From NCBI GenBank assembly GCA_964411255.1, contig CAYPKD010000005.1:5547-69546 (forward strand): a DNA stretch of 64,000 nucleotides, read 5' to 3'. Shown piece by piece: positions 11,520 through 64,000 of the stretch. Source of the stretch: an uncultured Gammaproteobacteria bacterium (GTDB lineage: Bacteria; Patescibacteriota; Patescibacteriia; UBA11705; DATKZF01). The notes beneath the pieces are model-generated. The model had not been told where the DNA came from, ran no database searches, and saw nothing but the letters and a program-made list of their open reading frames with translations. The first letter of the stretch is position 1, and each line of letters opens with the position of its first letter. Made by a program: the position numbers and the translations under genes.

Positions 11520-12509
11520 ATGACAGATAAAAATACAATTTATGATGTAATAATCATCGGTGCTGGCGCTGCAGGTTTGACAGCAGCCATTTATACTGGC
11601 CGAAGAGAATTGAAAACATTAATTTTGACAAAAGACATTGGCGGCCAGGCTGCGATGACTGATGAAATTGAAAATTGGCCTGGTGAAATTTCTATTTTAG
11701 GACCTGAACTAATGAATAAATTTAAAGCCCAAGCTGAAAAGTGGGGTGCAAAAATTGAATTTGCTGAAATAAAAGAGATTAAAAAAGAAAAAGATTATTT
11801 TGTACTACTTGCAGATGGAAAAGAATATAAAGCATTAACTATAATTTTAGGATTTGGACTTGAGCATAGGAAATTAGGAGTGAGCGGAGAGAAAGAATTT
11901 ACTGGAAAAGGAATATCATATTGCGCCACTTGTGATGGCCCATTATTTCGAGGGAAGACAATTGGTGTGGTTGGCGGAGGTAATTCAGCTTTGGATGCAG
12001 TTGAATATTTAGCAAAGCTGGCGGAAAAGGTTTATATGTTTATTAGAAAAGATACTTTTAGTCCAAATGCAGAGACAGTTCTTGTTGATACAATTCAGAA
12101 TTTGGAAAAACAAGGCAAAGTTGAAGTAATGTGGAACACAGAAGTAAAGGAAATAAAAGGAGAAAAATTAATGAATTCTGTGGAATTTGTTAATAATAAA
12201 ACGAATAAAACACAAGATTTAGAATTAAAGGGTTTATTTATTGAAATTGGCATGGTACCGCAGACAAAAGTGATTGAAGGCCTGGTTGATTTAGATGAAC
12301 GTGGACAAATAGTAATTGATCAGGGATGTAATACCAGCGTGCCTGGCATTTATGCTGCTGGTGATGTAACTATCAGTCCATATAAACAATTGGTCACTTC
12401 TGCTGGGGAAGGTGCAAAAGCAGCTTTATCAGCATATTCTCATATTCAGAAAACTCAGGGTAAAAAAGGCGGAGTTGGGAGTGATTTTACAAAAAAGAAA
12501 ATTATGTAA
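11520..12509 (+). CDS. trxB: thioredoxin-disulfide reductase
   Basis: FAD motif IIGAGAAGLTAAIY and redox-active CATCDG. Confidence 0.92.
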   Translation: MTDKNTIYDVIIIGAGAAGLTAAIYTGRRELKTLILTKDIGGQAAMTDEIENWPGEISILGPELMNKFKAQAEKWGAKIEFAEIKEIKKEKDYFVLLADGKEYKALTIILGFGLEHRKLGVSGEKEFTGKGISYCATCDGPLFRGKTIGVVGGGNSALDAVEYLAKLAEKVYMFIRKDTFSPNAETVLVDTIQNLEKQGKVEVMWNTEVKEIKGEKLMNSVEFVNNKTNKTQDLELKGLFIEIGMVPQTKVIEGLVDLDERGQIVIDQGCNTSVPGIYAAGDVTISPYKQLVTSAGEGAKAALSAYSHIQKTQGKKGGVGSDFTKKKIM

Positions 12510-34635: not shown

Positions 34636-35126
34636 TGAAAGCTCCTTTTTAAAAAAATTTGAAAAAAAACACTCGAATCTAACAAGAGATCCAAGCATTT
34701 TTTCGTACGAAAGTCCGCTTAAGACTCTCTTTCAAAATTTCCAAATAAGTTTTAGAAACTTTGAGAGATCGGAGAGTGCAGTGCTCACTCTCCGATGTCC
34801 GTTGCTTTAACCCGTAGGAGGCAGCTTTAGGTGCCTATGCGTTTTAAGGATGCAAGCGTTAAAGATCTCGGCTTGTTCATCCTGTTACCCATCCCCACTA
34901 GAGGATGTATTGGGTGGTTAGCAGAATTTTATACAGGCGCCTCTGCCAGGGCGCAGATGTAAACACATTGATGACAGATTATTATCTCTTGCCACCAAAT
35001 TAATGTTGTGAAGAGCCTTGTTGCTCTTCTCTGAATTCTGAAAATAAATTTCAGAACTCGGAGAAGCTGAGGATGGTTTGACGCATCCTCAGATATTTCC
35101 TTTCTTAAAATTTGGAGGTGAATAAC

Positions 35127-57958: not shown

Positions 57959-58285
57959 TTATTTTATCTCTTTTAATCTAGTATGAGATGTTCTTAAATA
58001 TCCCAATTTTGCCCGCCTGACTCTGTATGTTTTTGCTACTTCGATTTTTTCCAAAGTAGGCATGTGCAACGGAAATATTTTTTCAACTCCAACACCATCA
58101 GAAATTTTTCTGACTGTAATGGTCGCCCCGGGTTCTGATCCATGTCTTCTGGCTAAAACCATTCCTTCAAAAACCTGGATTCTTTCTTTTTCCTCGCCTT
58201 TTGGGTTTAGCTCCTTAATTTTTTGGTGAACACGAACAACCTTGCCTGGTTGAATTTCTGGATATAATTGTTTTTTTTCTGACAT
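57959..58285 (-). CDS. rplS: 50S ribosomal protein L19
   Basis: bL19 signature; C-terminal YRVRRAKLGYLR. Confidence 0.9.
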   Translation of the reverse strand: MSEKKQLYPEIQPGKVVRVHQKIKELNPKGEEKERIQVFEGMVLARRHGSEPGATITVRKISDGVGVEKIFPLHMPTLEKIEVAKTYRVRRAKLGYLRTSHTRLKEIK

Positions 58286-58374
58286 AGAATTGTAGATTGA
58301 TAGTCTTTAGACTGTTTTTATTGTTTATGAGTAACACGCTAAAGTTTGTCATACTGGAAAAGAATTGTCAAGTT

Positions 58375-58923
58375 TTATGTAAATATGATTTTCTCACATT
58401 CTAACATTGTTTGATCTATTTTATTTTCTTTATTATATACACTGTAATCTGCCTGAGAAGCCAGTTTAAGCTCTTTTGGTATGAAGCTTTTTCTTTTTTC
58501 AAATATCTCTTTTGGCAGATTTCTTTTTTTAAGCCTTTTTTCAATATTTTCCGGCTTGGCAGTTAAAAATATTTTTGAAATGAAATCCTTTTTATATTCT
58601 TTTTTATTAATTGACAAAGGATCAATGGTGGTGATAGCAATTTTACCTTGCTGCCAGATTTTTTCAAGTTCAGGCATTGGTTTTCCATAATAATTTCCAT
58701 AAACTTGTTCCCATTCAATTAAATTGTGCTGCGCAATTAATTTTTTAAAATCTTTTTCAGTTAAAAAAATATATTCACCGCTTGTTTCATCTTTTTTTCT
58801 TGGTAGTCTGGTAGTGTAGGTGATTAGGCGCTTAATTTTATCAGAATGTTTTTCTAAAATTTTATTAACGATTGTAGTTTTTCCTACACCAGACGGTCCT
58901 GAAAAAATTATTAATTTATTCAT
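58375..58923 (-). CDS. gmk: guanylate kinase
   Basis: P-loop SGPSGVGKTT and the TTR.PR..E..G..Y.F motif. Confidence 0.9.
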   Translation of the reverse strand: MNKLIIFSGPSGVGKTTIVNKILEKHSDKIKRLITYTTRLPRKKDETSGEYIFLTEKDFKKLIAQHNLIEWEQVYGNYYGKPMPELEKIWQQGKIAITTIDPLSINKKEYKKDFISKIFLTAKPENIEKRLKKRNLPKEIFEKRKSFIPKELKLASQADYSVYNKENKIDQTMLECEKIIFT

Positions 58924-59036
58924 ATATATAGAAAGCTTAATGGGCTTGATAAGGCTTAAGAAGGTAAAGAGGGCAATTTCATTGCTTCATTATTTAACAT
59001 ATAATAACATCATAACCTCGTAACTTCATAACTTTT

Positions 59037-60635
59037 TTATCTCTTTTTACCTTTTTTCTTCTTTTTCCTAGATTCAATAATCTGTTTTTCTTGATCCAAA
59101 ATTTCTTGCTTATGATTTTGAAGATATTTCATTGCCTGTTTTTTTGAATTTATTTCTCCATTTAGCCAAGCATCCTGAACTGCTGTTAAAGCTAAGCCAA
59201 AATAAATTCCCCCACGTCTTTCAAAAAATATTTCATTAATATCATCACTTGAAAGAATGGTCTTTGGTAATTTTTGCTCTTGCCTTGCTTCAATTCTCTT
59301 CCTTACTTTTTCAATTTTGGTCATCAGCTCATCATAACGCTTAGTATTTGGCTGGCCATCAGATTTAATTGAGCTTAATGAATCTAAATAGGTAAGCATT
59401 AATAATTCATTGCCATGTTTTCCGAAAAAAGCATTTTCAATATCTTTAAAAGAAAATTGTCCTGGATCTTCCAGCAGATTTCTTATTAAAAAAGTGATTT
59501 CCTTAATTTGCTTATTGGAAAATTTTAAACGACGAGTGATTTTTTCAGACAGTTGAGCGCTTTGCTCGTTAGGATGTTTAAATTTGATTTTTTCATCTCC
59601 ATCTTCAATTACAATTTCCTGTGATTTTGGTTTCCCAATTTGCGAAAGCATAATAGCGACAGTAAATTCTGGAGATATTTTGGCATTTGGGAATTTTGAT
59701 TTGAATTCTGGAGAATTGATTTTTTCCAGCATTAATTTAGTATGCTGCCAGACATCTCCTTCCTGATGAGATTCAGCTGGTTGAGTGCAATTTTTGAGTT
59801 TATTTAATTCAGGAATAATCTGCTGCCAGAGACTTGCTTTATCATATAAATCAAAAGCGCGTTCTGAATTTTCTTTAAGGCTTTTTAATAATTCTTTTCT
59901 AATGGTGTCTTCTGGTACTTTTCTTTCTTTTTTACCTTTTTCACCCACCACAGTATCATTGATGTGCTGGGCATTTTCAATAATTGCTTTCCAGGTATTT
60001 TTTTCAATTTGAAAATCAAACCGGCAGGCAAAGCGGATAGCGCGCAGCATCCTGGAATAATCTTCTTTGAATCTGTCTTCAGGTTTGCCAACAGCACGGA
60101 TAAGCTTGTTTTCTAAATCTTTTTTTCCATCATAAGGATCAACCAATTTTCCTTCTCTGACATCATAGGCCATGGCATTTATAGTCAAATCCCTTCGGCC
60201 CAAATCTTCTTCGACCGGCATGTTTGGATCAGACTGAACTTCAAAATCTTTTTTGCCACCGCCGCCAGTTGAAAATTCTGTGCGTGGAAAAGCAATATCA
60301 ATTGGTTCATCTAAACTTTTGTCTTCTGGCATGAATTTATAAACGCCAAAATGCTTTCCAACCAGATCTAAGCTGCCCTTTTCTTCAGTTAAAGCCTTTT
60401 CAAGGTCCTGGCCAGATATTTTTCTAAATATAAAATCAAAATCTTTTGATTTAAGCTTGTCTAAAAGGGTATCGCGCACAATTCCACCGACCATGTACAT
60501 TTCCAAATTTTCAAGATTAGGGTTGGTAATAAAATCATCTAAAAATCGCTTGACAGCTGGTTCAGTTAATATTCTTTTTCGCAGCTTGTCTTCTGGAGCC
60601 TCTTCCTTTAGTAATATTTTTTCAAAAAATTTCAT
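59037..60635 (-). CDS. cca: CCA tRNA nucleotidyltransferase / poly(A) polymerase family with HD domain
   Basis: GGIVRD...DFD nucleotidyltransferase motif plus a C-terminal HD-like region. Confidence 0.8.
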   Translation of the reverse strand: MKFFEKILLKEEAPEDKLRKRILTEPAVKRFLDDFITNPNLENLEMYMVGGIVRDTLLDKLKSKDFDFIFRKISGQDLEKALTEEKGSLDLVGKHFGVYKFMPEDKSLDEPIDIAFPRTEFSTGGGGKKDFEVQSDPNMPVEEDLGRRDLTINAMAYDVREGKLVDPYDGKKDLENKLIRAVGKPEDRFKEDYSRMLRAIRFACRFDFQIEKNTWKAIIENAQHINDTVVGEKGKKERKVPEDTIRKELLKSLKENSERAFDLYDKASLWQQIIPELNKLKNCTQPAESHQEGDVWQHTKLMLEKINSPEFKSKFPNAKISPEFTVAIMLSQIGKPKSQEIVIEDGDEKIKFKHPNEQSAQLSEKITRRLKFSNKQIKEITFLIRNLLEDPGQFSFKDIENAFFGKHGNELLMLTYLDSLSSIKSDGQPNTKRYDELMTKIEKVRKRIEARQEQKLPKTILSSDDINEIFFERRGGIYFGLALTAVQDAWLNGEINSKKQAMKYLQNHKQEILDQEKQIIESRKKKKKGKKR

Positions 60636-60647
60636 ATTACCAATTGA

Positions 60648-61544
60648 TTATTTGTAAAGGGATCTTTTATATTCATCTAAAACATCTTTTATAAGGCTAT
60701 GGATGATTGTTTTTACAACTTGCTCTTGTTCTCCTTTTTTCCCATAACCAATGAATTTTTTAATTTCAAATTTTTTTGTCCCACCTCCAGAGAATTTTTT
60801 TATATTTATTTTTAAAAATTGTTCAGCCAGAGTTTGTAGTTCTTCTCTTATTTGGGGAATTTTTTGGTCTGCCAATTCTCTTAATTTTGCTTCGAGTATT
60901 GCCTTTAGTCCGATTTTAGTCAGATTTCTGATAATTGCTGGATCCTGATATAAAAATAAGGATTGGTTATCAAAAAAAAGTTCAGCCTGCTCAAGATCCT
61001 GAAATTGAGATGCTTTGCTGAATAGTTTAGTATAGTGATTTTCTTCTAATTTTTGTGTAATGAATTCTGCGATTTGTTCATTATTTGTATAATCTAAATT
61101 TTCTAGGTCTTCTTCGTCATTAGGCTCTATTAATCTTCCAGTAAAATACATTGGATAAGCTCCTTTCATTGCAGTGTACCATCTTGTAGTATCATATGAA
61201 TTATCTTCTTTGAGGTGAATAAAAAACACAACTTCATCATCTGAACCTTTGAATCGTTTACCTTCTTTTTCCTCACTCGATTGGACAAACTCTGGGTTTA
61301 GTCTAATTGAAAAGCGAAGTACTTTGCTATGAGTTTTTTTCGTACTATATGGCAAATTTGCTTGATCAAGTTTTTTTTGGAGCAATTTATTTATTTCCTT
61401 ACTTCTTTCTGCCAGTTCTTTTATTCTTTTTTCATGTTTCGAACCATAATCAACAACAATCTGCTCATGTTTTCGCCATCGAAGTTTTTCAGTTGGCTTT
61501 AATGATTTTTGGCCGAGTGATTCTTCTATTGTTGGTTTTCTCAT
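60648..61544 (-). CDS. hypothetical protein
   Basis: 298-aa ORF with no recognised motif. Confidence 0.45.
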   Translation of the reverse strand: MRKPTIEESLGQKSLKPTEKLRWRKHEQIVVDYGSKHEKRIKELAERSKEINKLLQKKLDQANLPYSTKKTHSKVLRFSIRLNPEFVQSSEEKEGKRFKGSDDEVVFFIHLKEDNSYDTTRWYTAMKGAYPMYFTGRLIEPNDEEDLENLDYTNNEQIAEFITQKLEENHYTKLFSKASQFQDLEQAELFFDNQSLFLYQDPAIIRNLTKIGLKAILEAKLRELADQKIPQIREELQTLAEQFLKINIKKFSGGGTKKFEIKKFIGYGKKGEQEQVVKTIIHSLIKDVLDEYKRSLYK

Positions 61545-61549
61545 ATTAA

Positions 61550-62491
61550 TTATGTAAGATTTTTTATAAAATTATTTAAATTTTCCTTTAAATCAATTTC
61601 ATATTCCATTTCATTACTCTGCAAGTCTGTGAATTTTAAATAATATGCTTGTAAAAACATGTTTTCAATTTTAACTGGTTTGATTTTTTTTGATTTGTAT
61701 AAAGGATCGCCGACTACTGGATTGCCCAGAGCAAAAAAGTGAACTCTGATTTGATGAGTGCGGCCGGATTTTGGCATTACATCTACAAATGAAAATTTTT
61801 TAAATTCTTTAATAACATCATACTGGGTTAAAGCTTCTTTTCCCCGACGTGAATTAAACGGGTGAGCAGCCAGCGCACCAGTTTGCGAGCTTCTGCCAAT
61901 TCGAAATGATATTGAATCTTCTTTTGTGTCTAAGTGCCCGTAAACCAATGCATAGTATTTTTTTTCAATCAATCTTTTTTTAAATTGAGATTTGAGATGC
62001 TCAAACATGTCCTGAGTTTTTGGGATTATCATCAGGCCTGACGTTTCTTTATCTAATCGATGAACAATTGCTGGTCTTTGCGGATCTTCACCTATTTTTT
62101 TTAGTTCTGGATATTTTTTTATCAGCCAATGTACTAATGTATTTGGTTCATTTTTATCAGTTGGATGAACTAAAACATTTGCTGGCTTATTGATAATTAA
62201 ATACTTATCTTTATCATCAATTACTTTAATTTGTTTTAAAAGTTCTTTATTTTCATCTTTTTTAAATACTCGTTTTACTTTGGAGACTGCTTTTTTTATT
62301 TTTTCTTCTTTGACAATGACAATATCTCCGGTTTTTAAAAAGTGATGAACAGTCGGCACTTTTTCATTTATTAAAACCAAGCCAGATTGAATCTGTTTTT
62401 TAATTTGGCTTCTGGTGATTTCTGGCATCATTTGAGCCAGAAATTTATCAAGTCGTGATTTATCAAATTCTTTAATAACTTTATATTTCAT
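61550..62491 (-). CDS. rluD: RluA/RluD-family 23S rRNA pseudouridine synthase
   Basis: N-terminal S4 domain (RLDKFLAQ) and catalytic HRLDKETSGLMII motif. Confidence 0.85.
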   Translation of the reverse strand: MKYKVIKEFDKSRLDKFLAQMMPEITRSQIKKQIQSGLVLINEKVPTVHHFLKTGDIVIVKEEKIKKAVSKVKRVFKKDENKELLKQIKVIDDKDKYLIINKPANVLVHPTDKNEPNTLVHWLIKKYPELKKIGEDPQRPAIVHRLDKETSGLMIIPKTQDMFEHLKSQFKKRLIEKKYYALVYGHLDTKEDSISFRIGRSSQTGALAAHPFNSRRGKEALTQYDVIKEFKKFSFVDVMPKSGRTHQIRVHFFALGNPVVGDPLYKSKKIKPVKIENMFLQAYYLKFTDLQSNEMEYEIDLKENLNNFIKNLT

Positions 62492-62549
62492 GAGTTTATT
62501 CTATCATTTTTTACCTAAACAAACAATAAAAATAGAGGAAAGGAAATAT

Positions 62550-62578
62550 TTGACAAATTAAAGCAAATATGTTAAATT
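62550..62578 (+). promoter_or_regulatory. candidate promoter TTGACA-17-TAAATT upstream of the RT gene
   Basis: Direct motif match, about 50 nt before the ATG. Confidence 0.4.
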
Positions 62579-62626
62579 GAATTACCGTGTTCTTTGAATA
62601 AAACCTCTTTGGGAAAGGGAAAAATC

Positions 62627-64000
62627 ATGCTTGATCTGAAGCGAAAAAAGCGCCGTAAGCCAAGAACTGAATTTAAGTATGAAGATTTTCGTGTTGTGAC
62701 TGAGCTTGATGTTCATCTGGCTCAGTACCTGCGGACTTTTCTTCACATTGACATTAGTCAATGGAATTTTTGCATGGATATTATCCGCCAGGGCCGGGCT
62801 TATACAACTGAGCTGCGGTCAAAAGGCAAAGGCAAAGGTACTCGAAAAATCTATAAGCCGCACAATGCGCTTAAAGTAGTGCAGCGGGCAATTAAGAACC
62901 GGATTCTAAAGCAGATCCCTGTTCATTTTGCCAGACATGGCGGGCCAGACGGCACCAGTACGATGACCAATGTGGCTCAGCATGCTGGATTTGCCAAAGC
63001 AGTTTTTTCTGTTGATCTGGTCAATGCCTATCCGTCAGTAACCCGTTATCGGGTAAAAAGAAATTTGGAAAAGCCGATTTCTTTTCTGCTAAAGCAGTTT
63101 ATGGGAGTGGAATTTTCAAAAGACGATGTTGAAAAAATGATTGAAGCAATTTGCGATTTGACATGTTACCATGATCGGGTGCAGCAGGGATTGCCATCTT
63201 CAGCAAGAATGTTGGACATTTGTTGCATGAAGCTGGATATGGACATTTTCAAGCTTCTTCATGACCAATCTTCTGCATTGCAGAAGTATCGGTATACTGC
63301 TTTTGTAGATGATCTGACAATTTCATCAAATGATGAAATTACAATTGAACTGATGCAGCAAATCATCGATACGATTGAAGCCAATGGCTTTATTCCCCAC
63401 ATAAGAAAAGATAAGACAAAGTATTTCAGCCGAAAAAGTGGTGAAGTGCCAGAGGTAACTGGCTTGGTAGTTAATGATGATGGCCGTATCACTATGGCTA
63501 AGGGAAAAGTCAACCAGATCAGGGGTACGCTTTTCAATATTTGCAAGCAAGTCAAATGGACAGAAGAAGACTTGAATAGAGTTAGGGGCCTGATCGCCTA
63601 TGTTAATATGGTTTACCCTGACAAGTTGCCCAGCAAGCTGAAAAAGATTGTTGATGCAGCGCAATTGCGAGTCAAAGCTGAACAGCTTGCCAGATTTAGC
63701 AGTTCTAAACCTGTTGAATTTTCAGCAGCGCAGGACGATGATGAAAAAGAAGTTGTCTCAGGTATTCTGTACACTGACGGCGCTTCTAAAAAGGGAATCG
63801 GAACTGTCGGAGTGGTGCTGCAAAAAGAAGGCAGAGTGGTGCGTGAGATTTCCAGTGTGATTGGCGCTGCCACAAATAATCAGGCTGAATATCAAGCCTT
63901 GATTACTGGTATGGAAGCAGCGCTTGAAGAAAATGTTACTGCTCTTGATTGTTTTTTTGACAGCAAGCTGATCTATAATCAGTTGAGCAAGAGTAATAAA
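62627..64000 (+). CDS. retron-type reverse transcriptase fused to C-terminal RNase HI domain (3'-truncated by window end)
   Basis: Open frame from ATG 62627 to the window end (not in the ORF track because there is no stop). RT domains match retron Ec86: TRKIYKPHNALKVVQRAIKNRIL (d1), FSVDLVNAYPSVT (d2), GLPSSARMLDICCMKLD (d4), YTAFVDDLTIS (d5, YxDD), and the retron-hallmark VTGLVVN after d7. It is followed by an RNase H fold with ILYTDGAS, ATNNQAEYQAL and FDSKLI (the D/E/D catalytic residues). GC is markedly higher than the flanks. Confidence 0.8.
   Translation, partial: MLDLKRKKRRKPRTEFKYEDFRVVTELDVHLAQYLRTFLHIDISQWNFCMDIIRQGRAYTTELRSKGKGKGTRKIYKPHNALKVVQRAIKNRILKQIPVHFARHGGPDGTSTMTNVAQHAGFAKAVFSVDLVNAYPSVTRYRVKRNLEKPISFLLKQFMGVEFSKDDVEKMIEAICDLTCYHDRVQQGLPSSARMLDICCMKLDMDIFKLLHDQSSALQKYRYTAFVDDLTISSNDEITIELMQQIIDTIEANGFIPHIRKDKTKYFSRKSGEVPEVTGLVVNDDGRITMAKGKVNQIRGTLFNICKQVKWTEEDLNRVRGLIAYVNMVYPDKLPSKLKKIVDAAQLRVKAEQLARFSSSKPVEFSAAQDDDEKEVVSGILYTDGASKKGIGTVGVVLQKEGRVVREISSVIGAATNNQAEYQALITGMEAALEENVTALDCFFDSKLIYNQLSKSNK

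Follow-up and report, generated by a model that had tools for sequence, protein, structure and literature searches.

Canonical retrons (types I-XIII of Mestre 2020, including Ec86/Eco1, Ec78, Ec83, Eco8 and Mx162) combine a reverse transcriptase (RT) with a noncoding RNA (ncRNA) in which a1/a2 inverted repeats enclose 1-3 msr hairpins and a long msd. One end of the a1/a2 duplex is where the template starts, directly 5' of a2, and where the priming G lies, directly 3' of a1. The product, multicopy single-stranded DNA (msDNA), is primed from the 2'-OH of a conserved branching G and contains a 2'-5' RNA-DNA junction. The hallmarks of the RT are the NAXXH and VTG motifs, in which the histidine and the glycine, respectively, are the most conserved residues (Mestre 2020, PMC7736814). 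As a rule, retron RTs are without RNase H and rely on host RNase H1 (PMC8989520). The window analysed here, a stretch of 64,000 nucleotides (nt) of contig CAYPKD010000005.1 (assembly GCA_964411255.1), ends within a gene encoding a retron-clade RT fused to an RNase HI domain. Beyond the window, this gene heads a cassette of tandem structured RNA modules, a MoxR-like ATPase gene and a gene for a protein with a candidate von Willebrand factor A (vWA) domain. The balance of the evidence leans, by a small measure, towards a new retron-like type in which the RT copies the array modules into single-stranded DNAs (ssDNAs) that control the ATPase/vWA pair.

The window protein is a retron-clade RT which lies outside every defined type. 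The best 25 of the 36 PADLOC models that match it are all retron RT models, with flat scores falling from 132 to 116 bits over the first four (RT_XIII 132, II-A 120, VI 116). A sequence search of the Protein Data Bank (PDB) matched the RT exclusively to retron RTs (Kva2, Ec86, Ec78, Ec83 and Ec67). An AlphaFold2 (AF2) model of the full-length protein, P0001, was built with 18 relatives; Foldseek comparison of this model with the PDB gave retron RTs at ranks 1-18 (7.5e-16 to 7e-12), followed by G2L4/group II (~1e-10), Abi-P2 (3e-8), diversity-generating retroelement (DGR; 6e-8) and DRT2 (9e-7) enzymes. H125 of NAXXH and G285 of VTG (P0001 numbering) are invariant in the 18 relatives. An earlier note on this DNA, made from the letters alone, had proposed a retron-type RT with VTG and FVDD motifs. 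Both motifs are present, RVT_1 scores above its cut-off, and all three comparisons rank retron RTs first rather than placing the protein outside the clade.

None of types I-XIII reaches its cut-off. For example, the NCBIfam scores are 141 against a cut-off of 235 for retron_St85_RT, 82 against 450 for Ec67 and 64 against 600 for TIR. The nearest relatives likewise fall in no defined type. "Retron-like" is a safer term than "retron", since no type cut-off is reached and the associated RNA is without the canonical a1-msr-msd-a2 layout. The family is small, with 42 clusters (50% identity) at E <= 1e-30 among 1.84 billion representatives. Full-length RT-RNase H fusions make up five of these clusters.

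The open reading frame (ORF) is still open at the end of the window. A protein-collection search returned an identical match of 530 amino acids (aa), P0001, encoded on a 388-kb ENA contig, of which 21.6 kb were fetched (locus L001). Because the last 11,392 nt of the window are identical to L001 1-11392 (0 mismatches; window position = L001 position + 52,608), the gene can be followed intact to a stop at L001 11593, 201 nt past the window end. The uninterrupted ORF disposes of the pseudogene envisaged in the earlier note. The product has 524 aa from ATG 62627, or 530 aa as called; alternative TTG starts lie at 62609 and 62594.

Judged by its sequence, the C-terminal domain is a type 1 RNase HI with the D-E-D-D catalytic residues kept, as had been foreseen. 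In the window product, both RVT_3 (3.5e-9, 37.1 against a cut-off of 21.6) and RNase_H (5.7e-7, 30.2 against 25.8) match aa 380-456, where the domain is incomplete. The best PDB matches are RNase HI structures: 3hst (Rv2228c N-terminal domain, 5e-16), 3u3g, 4e19 (Halobacterium) and 2ehg (Sulfolobus tokodaii). D390, E427 and D451 (P0001) are invariant in six fusions and D501 is present in five of the six. The fourth aspartate, in an ADKL motif, falls past the window end. According to the AF2 model, the RT and RNase HI domains are joined by a disordered linker of ~30 aa. Confidence (predicted local distance difference test, pLDDT) is mostly 80-97 in the RT core and 74-96 in the RNase H core, and below 50 at residues 367-399, a segment comprising the linker and running into the start of the RNase H match.

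The cassette in L001 is ordered RT-RNase H, eight RNA modules, AAA_5/MoxR-like ATPase, a single RNA element of one kind (B, below) and the vWA protein. The prediction that an ncRNA and partner genes must lie downstream was thus borne out. Scans of GTDB genomes and JGI metagenomes with a nine-sequence alignment as query gave 14 further loci, three of them from metagenomes. A scan of IMG/VR gave no loci, and INPHARED phages gave no array match and remote RT matches (23% identity). ORF maps and all-versus-all BLASTP revealed three gene families common to the loci, while the other neighbours differ: 14 loci have the RT, 12 the ATPase and 10 the vWA protein, that is, every locus with enough downstream sequence. 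RNA elements on the RT strand (A and B) fill the gene-free stretches between the three genes, and the last B ends 3-37 nt before the ATPase or vWA start codon in ten cases. Array size ranges from one to about twelve modules; approximate counts are at least 11 A hairpins in L007, 3 + 1 units in L004, 1 + 3 in L006, at least 4 in L010 and 4-5 in L011. The plausibly named loci from GTDB genomes are labelled as Patescibacteria (Andersen-, Uhr-, Falkow- and Parcubacteria), and the "uncultured Gammaproteobacteria" titles of five metagenome-assembled genomes are suspected to be mislabels. As far as seen, the cassette is confined to Patescibacteria.

The RNase HI accompanies this RT as a fusion, as an adjacent gene or not at all. 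The fusion occurs in the L001/L017 lineage and in L004. In two Uhrbacteria-type loci, a separate 141-aa RNase HI gene lies upstream of the RT gene (8616) and ends ~210 nt before it (L008 7980-8405, L016 7950-8405). Fusion in some genomes and adjacency in others indicate a functional link between RT and RNase HI, and this fusion/fission implies an RNA-DNA hybrid as intermediate. The self-contained RT-RNase H enzyme suggested in the earlier note is a reasonable description for the L001 lineage. It does not extend to the whole family, most relatives being without a nearby RNase H.

The RNA array occupies a 2.9-kb region (L001 11594-14469) with no called gene and no long ORF. It consists of eight tandem modules with a period of 317-446 nt, each composed, in order, of element A, a variable segment V1, element B and a linker, V2, of 20-150 nt. 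Element A is conserved as ..GCUGUUUGAGC-[9-10-bp hairpin]-GUGAGGCUGCGGUC. V1 (80-165 nt) is GC-rich, strongly self-complementary and different in every unit. In element B (~105 nt), a closing stem formed by CAAUCAAAGCUGAAAAC and UUUUCAGCUUUCUUG encloses a conserved hairpin 1 (GGGGAAGUGAAAUCAUUUCCCC) and a variable hairpin 2, and a conserved tail, ..GUUUGCUUG|AYC, follows the 3' strand. The downstream ncRNA with a1/a2 repeats expected in the earlier note was therefore found as regards a structured RNA, but not as a canonical a1-msr-msd-a2 layout. An Rfam search of the RT, array and flanks at a permissive threshold gave two chance miRNA matches only.

Both conserved elements are supported by covariation. 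A covariance model (CM) of B, R1, was built from the L001 copies and rebuilt from 21 copies as R2. The two models find 21-25 copies in nine loci (25 with R2), all on the RT strand and 3' of an RT. R2 is weak in the GC-rich loci L007, L008 and L012 (E = 0.17-3, filters off), where units were counted from their own repeat families. In the 21-copy alignment, 91% of the cells are paired and 34 of the 35 pairs have compensatory changes. None of 500 shuffles equals this covariation, and slid 3' partners pair at 42-60%. For element A, a plain MAFFT alignment of 26 copies from eight loci gives a hairpin that is 97% paired, with five compensatory pairs. The hairpin is flanked by GA on both strands, the adenine being invariant and the guanine invariant or nearly so. 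Moreover, an outer stem of 4-6 bp covaries between loci (AGCU/GGCU in L001, CUUC/GAAG in L010, UGCU/AGCA in L004 and GCGGCC/GGCCGC in L007). The paired GA sequences form a tandem G.A internal loop. A kink-turn (K-turn) consists of a canonical stem, a 3-nt bulge, tandem sheared G.A/A.G pairs and a non-canonical stem; element A has a U-rich bulge of 4-6 nt and appears to be K-turn-like. G.U pairs account for 24% of the pairs of A and 13% of those of B, and each of the two elements folds better as sense than as antisense strand in 14 of 14 cases. The two elements thus covary and fold as plus-strand RNA. An alternative partner for the 5' strand of B, the 5' flank of A, was rejected; covariation backs only the B-internal stem.

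Two side observations concern these RNA elements. CM R2 also matches positions 34713-34808 (E = 9e-5) and 35003-35103 (E = 0.05) of the window, both on the minus strand and 28 kb away from the cassette, in a gene-poor region between ORFs without a Pfam match. The first of these ends ~15 nt before ATG 34698 of a 126-aa ORF. It may be a stray B-like leader or else a structural false positive. In addition, the long V2 linkers of units 5-8 (L001 13290-13430, 13680-13820 and 14067-14215) contain mini-hairpins of the GCGAAAGC-, GCGAAAACGC- and GCGAAATCGC-type, which have GNRA-like loops on the plus strand and are 70-95% alike between linkers.

V1 behaves differently from A and B. Only 40 of its 1032 predicted pairs (3.9%) are G.U. 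With RNA parameters, 20 of 25 V1 segments fold more stably as the reverse complement than as the sense strand (mean -6.6 kcal/mol, Wilcoxon p = 3e-5); with DNA parameters, 22 of 25 do so. Just -1.5 kcal/mol of this bias is explained by base composition (shuffles, p = 1e-4). Since the complement folds better, as would be expected of a functional cDNA, V1 is the probable template for reverse transcription. In about half of the V1 segments a short motif is repeated, with 3-7 copies distributed over both arms, and 0 of 500 shuffles match the strongest cases. CGTAAC/GTTACG recurs in the V1 of three genomes (units u2 and u3 of L001, unit c of L004 and unit b of L009; Table 1). Other repeated V1 motifs are CGGTAC(C) in L001 u5, GGATAGT in L006 and CCAAGC in L005, as well as GGTACCG.

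The cassette occupies the same site in a sister strain (L017-L020), the genes of which share 86-89% nucleotide identity. Its array (L017 6800-9239, corresponding to L001 11594-14469) contains seven units in the order u1, u2, u4, u5, u6, u8, u3: the u6/u7 duplicate is absent and u3 has moved to the end. This comparison indicates that arrays are remodelled by unit duplication and transposition and that the V1 repertoire is inherited. CRISPR-like acquisition of V1 was rejected, V1 being inherited at 76-93% identity in strains that differ by 11-14% in their genes. A DGR-style template/target reading was also rejected: 74 kb of the same genome contain no second copy of any V1 (best match E = 0.12, 13 nt).

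The two partner proteins resemble known families to different degrees. The ATPase has a Walker A motif (GPSGTGKT) and the DE of a VIFDEI motif. Its nearest relatives of solved structure are the midasin AAA domains, NorQ and McrB, and GvpN is the nearest NCBIfam model. In the vWA protein, HExGH (H91, E92, G94, H95), DRKDD and DxSxS are invariant in ten orthologues; the last corresponds to a C-terminal metal ion-dependent adhesion site (MIDAS), D401xS403xS405. PDB profile matches to the TRAP and CobT vWA domains are weak (E = 0.04-0.08). The N-terminal region has a faint match to DUF2201_N (E = 0.08), and searches of PADLOC, NCBIfam, Pfam and the PDB gave neither a family nor a structure match for the N-terminal half.

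Taken together, these features can be accommodated in the reading slightly favoured here, in which modules are copied into ssDNAs that control the partner proteins; priming mode, product and defence role form its inferred part. The whole cassette would probably be transcribed as one unit from the promoter-like site upstream of the RT gene. The RT would dock on B, with hairpin 1 as handle, and copy the adjacent V1 into cDNA. The B closing stem would stand in for the a1/a2 duplex, with the parts circularly permuted: template, a2-like strand, handle hairpins, a1-like strand and ..GUUUGCUUG|AYC tail. V1 ends directly 5' of the B 5' strand and the tail follows the B 3' strand, so that template and tail would meet at the same duplex end. 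Such a permuted order is feasible, since engineered msd arrays with a separate msr work (PMC10370050). The A hairpin may mark the far boundary of the template. RNase HI, fused here, encoded by an adjacent gene in the two Uhrbacteria-type loci and perhaps a host enzyme in the others, would then strip the RNA template. Different ssDNA hairpins, many with several copies of a short motif, would thereby be freed and would hold in check or trigger the ATPase and vWA-metallopeptidase pair, most likely in an abortive-infection-type phage defence. Alternatively, the ssDNAs could provide an antitoxin scaffold, lure phage proteins or, as in type VI retrons, derepress translation. Because the last B ends so close to the ATPase or vWA start codon, translational coupling is possible too. 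The function of the ssDNA is the least certain step, and the case for a defence role comes only from analogy and from the island-like cassette in varying contexts. A more elaborate version of the same idea, to be entertained with some doubt, is a natural multiplexed and permuted retron whose RT-RNase HI turns an inherited array of 8-12 modules into ssDNA baits or sensors for phage DNA-binding or DNA-modifying proteins, gating the MoxR-ATPase/vWA-metallopeptidase in genome-reduced Patescibacteria.

Several points weigh against copying of the modules into regulatory ssDNAs. Within the RNA, there is no canonical a1/a2 duplex and no conserved pairing that encloses both msr- and msd-like parts. Nor is there a clearly unpaired conserved branching G; the conserved G that ends the B 3' strand (..CUUG|AYC) is predicted to be paired. 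Two candidate helices were rejected: GCUGU/ACAGC, between the A 5' flank and the V1 3' end, pairs in some units only, and GGUC (after A) with GACC (after B) is possible in L001 and L010, not in L007, L005 and L004. The covariation of B was measured on an alignment fitted to the model. The V1 asymmetry is strongest in the L001/L017 lineage, whose units are not independent because they form homologous pairs, and is near zero in L009 and L010. With regard to the enzymes, no RNase H was found within 8 kb of the RT in the remaining loci. The catalytic box is xxDN (e.g. YADN, WTDN), not xxDD, in 13 of 30 family RTs, including four of the six RNase H fusions; that of the window protein is FVDD. GDN is present in active L polymerases of mononegaviruses, and the DN box need not therefore mean inactivity. 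For the partner proteins, Pfam VWA scores 21.3 against a cut-off of 23.8 bits, with a weak match in seven of ten members, and the metallopeptidase is putative, assigned by the HExGH motif. Neither partner protein matches a PADLOC defence model. Finally, cDNA, transcript and phenotype are all proposed from sequence.

Among the alternatives, the one that survives best is that B alone constitutes a small canonical retron, although this seems rather unlikely. The stem would be a1/a2, hairpin 1 the msr and hairpin 2 a ~40-nt msd template; A and V1 would be accessory RNA for processing, stability or insulation between units. The topology of B, with terminal inverted repeats around one conserved and one variable hairpin, is indeed textbook-like, hairpin 2 (helix 3) varies with compensatory changes, and a B without A-V1 is found directly 5' of the vWA gene. 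However, hairpin 2 contains many G.U pairs when read as sense strand (for example GU 9, UG 8 and UG 4 at three positions), and the consistently better folding of B as sense points to a function at the RNA level rather than to a DNA hairpin product. This explanation also leaves the scarcity of G.U pairs in V1, its better-folding complement and its motif arrays unaccounted for.

A little less probable again is the view that the modules are not templates at all, but cis-regulatory leaders or protein-binding scaffolds for the ATPase and vWA genes, the RT using another substrate or none, as do some abortive infection (Abi)/unknown group (UG) RTs. The short distance from the terminal B elements to the start codons, seen in every locus examined, the B-like element found far from the cassette (window 34713-34808) and the frequency of the xxDN box would all fit this view. 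Yet the internal modules of 8-12-unit arrays are distant from any start codon. Moreover, the RT has the structure of a retron RT, a class of enzymes that copy the adjacent ncRNA; the RNA-DNA hybrid implied by RNase HI fusion/fission and the antisense folding bias of V1 also speak for a template. Very improbable is a mobile retroelement (a retrotransposon-like RT-RNase H) or DGR-like diversifier with the repeats as cis elements or template repeats: RT followed by RNase H is the domain order of retroviral and long terminal repeat (LTR) elements and the cassette is a GC-richer island in differing genomic contexts, but no integrase or endonuclease is conserved among the related loci, retron RTs and not retroviral, group II or DGR RTs are nearest by sequence and fold, V1 has no copy elsewhere in the 74 kb of genome, and the sister strain keeps the cassette at the same site with the array altered only by unit duplication and transposition.

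The features of the cassette are listed in Table 1. The basic stretch near the N-terminus of the RT may contact nucleic acid. With regard to expression, the promoter which the earlier note had assigned to the RT gene is present as a sequence and is the top-scoring site in a promoter scan of the region. Its backing is a consensus match, and promoter-like sites in the region are not more numerous than in shuffles. The absence of an msr/msd-like RNA from the upstream spacer, stated in the same note, was upheld: the fold has z = +1.0 (200 shuffles), and the spacer contains no structured RNA and no match to CM R1, CM R2 or the hairpin-1 motif. The RT gene is also GC-richer than its surroundings, as had been noticed (0.41-0.44 against 0.29-0.33 upstream), and this holds for the whole 7.4-kb cassette (L001 10,000-17,400), with 0.37-0.46 against 0.28-0.34 in both flanks.

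Table 1. Positions of features in and around the cassette. Positions without a locus name refer to the window; those with a locus name refer to the fetched locus.
Feature	Position	Strand	Basis or remark
Spacer between divergent rluD-like gene and RT gene, 135 nt	62492..62626	+	unstructured
Promoter-like TTGACA-17 nt-TAAATT	62550..62578	+	10/12 matches; TG precedes -10 hexamer
RT-RNase HI gene, first 458 codons	62627..64000	+	ATG 62627; ORF open at window end
Basic stretch KRKKRRKPR, N-terminal	62639..62665	+	family alignment; basic stretch at same position in relatives
Core RT domain, Pfam RVT_1, aa 68-268	62828..63430	+	6.5e-11, above cut-off
TNVAQH, the retron NAXXH region-X motif	62966..62983	+	H invariant in family
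FVDD catalytic box (YxDD equivalent)	63302..63313	+	first D invariant in family
VTG triplet of RT7/region Y	63455..63463	+	G invariant in family
Flexible RT/RNase H linker, first part	63725..63763	+	low AF2 confidence; sequence and length vary among fusions
RNase HI, N-terminal two thirds	63764..64000	+	catalytic D 63776-63778, E 63887-63889, D 63959-63961
RNase H motif TDGAS	63773-63787		
RNase H motif QAEY	63881-63892		
RNase H motif FDSK	63956-63967		
Eight tandem RNA modules	L001 11657-14461	+	
CGTAACG/CGTTACG, 3-6 copies	L001 12400-12520 (u3), 12030-12190 (u2); L004 10185-10345; L009 8915-9066		
AAA_5 MoxR-like ATPase	L001 14470-15609	+	AAA_5 2e-12, 47.6 bits against cut-off 22
B-only element (no A-V1), in 95-nt spacer between ATPase and vWA genes	L001 15595-15702	+	R2 E = 3e-13
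HExGH + vWA protein, 564 aa	L001 15705-17399	+	motifs invariant in ten orthologues

The insertion point of the cassette is adjoined by housekeeping genes on the opposite strand (window 57959-62491, minus strand). These encode ribosomal protein L19, guanylate kinase, a PolyA_pol-family (CCA-adding-type) nucleotidyltransferase, a 298-aa ORF without a Pfam match and an RluD-type pseudouridine synthase. On the 3' side of the cassette (L001 17530-18504, minus strand), a 324-aa protein consists of ~30-aa repeats (..W.D..IVKAL..) and has no significant Pfam match. It is found at the same position in the sister strain and is not found in the other loci.

The linkage of a retron RT to a domain of the RNase H superfamily has a precedent in type VII retrons, where both fused and separate-gene variants occur. 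The DUF3800 domain of type VII is RNase H2-like, with a DEED signature, and is regarded as a putative effector (PMC7736814). In contrast, the domain of the cassette is a type 1 RNase HI (RVT_3/RNase_H) with DEDD, and separate effector candidates are present. The order of polymerase and RNase H on one polypeptide is that of retroviral and LTR-retrotransposon enzymes. Unlike these, the cassette RT belongs to another clade, a ~30-aa disordered linker replaces the connection domain, and its RNase H most resembles the RNase HI of bacteria and archaea (Rv2228c N-domain, Halobacterium, Sulfolobus tokodaii). An RNase HI fused or adjacent to the RT would provide a natural handle on the dependence of retrons on host RNase H1, and the RT-RNase HI, as a self-contained ssDNA-making enzyme, could be of use in retron-based editing.

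The partner genes recall the pairs formed by MoxR AAA+ and vWA proteins (the remodelling pairs NorQ/NorD, CbbQ/CbbO and CobS/CobT, and also RavA/ViaA), in which an AAA_5 gene is likewise followed by a larger MIDAS-vWA protein. The cassette differs in the N-terminal HExGH of the vWA protein and in the strict association of the pair with a retron-like RT and RNA modules. In the MoxR-vWA conflict systems described previously, the link to RTs consists of DGRs that diversify effectors (Kaur et al. 2020, PMC7159879). An extensive review of RTs in prokaryotes, in which DGRs represent ~80% of RTs in Candidate Phyla Radiation (CPR) bacteria, leaves RNase H unmentioned, and a 2026 metagenome survey of retrons mentions none of the features of the cassette. 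In the literature searched, no retron-type RT-RNase HI fusion, natural retron array or RT-MoxR-vWA link is described, and none of the 13 retron types has MoxR/vWA partners. If correct, the favoured reading would add a retron-like type beyond the 13 known, and from Patescibacteria, where most reported RTs are DGRs.

The array itself has an engineered equivalent. Tandem msr-msd arrays, and msd arrays with an msr in trans, are processed by a single retron RT in the so-called multitrons (PMC10370050). Whereas multitrons are synthetic, the array of the cassette is apparently a natural counterpart, inherited and remodelled by unit duplication and transposition. A natural array with one RT would reveal how the enzyme chooses among many templates and where it ends synthesis on each. 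A further possible likeness is with type VI retrons, where the hyRNA (Retron-Vpa2) couples the template to effector translation (bioRxiv 10.1101/2025.10.22.683967): template RNA and effector coding sequence could lie on one structured transcript, with the cDNA controlling translation. Type VI, however, has one ncRNA, a helix-turn-helix (HTH) partner and a small toxic peptide, while the cassette has arrays and two large predicted enzymes.

The closest comparison remains that with canonical retrons. The NAXXH and VTG motifs and the retron RT fold are shared, as are a structured ncRNA adjoining the RT on the same strand, the strict co-occurrence of accessory genes and a variable stem-loop region beside conserved RT-handle hairpins. 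Unlike in canonical retrons, the RNA is situated 3' of the RT and comprises 1 to ~12 tandem copies. V1, the probable template, is outside and 5' of the closing stem of B instead of being enclosed by it, and a K-turn-like hairpin is present. Moreover, the RNase HI is fused to the RT and the partners, a MoxR-like ATPase and an HExxH-vWA protein, are absent from the 13 types. The cassette is thus most likely an undescribed retron-like type with a non-canonical RNA layout.

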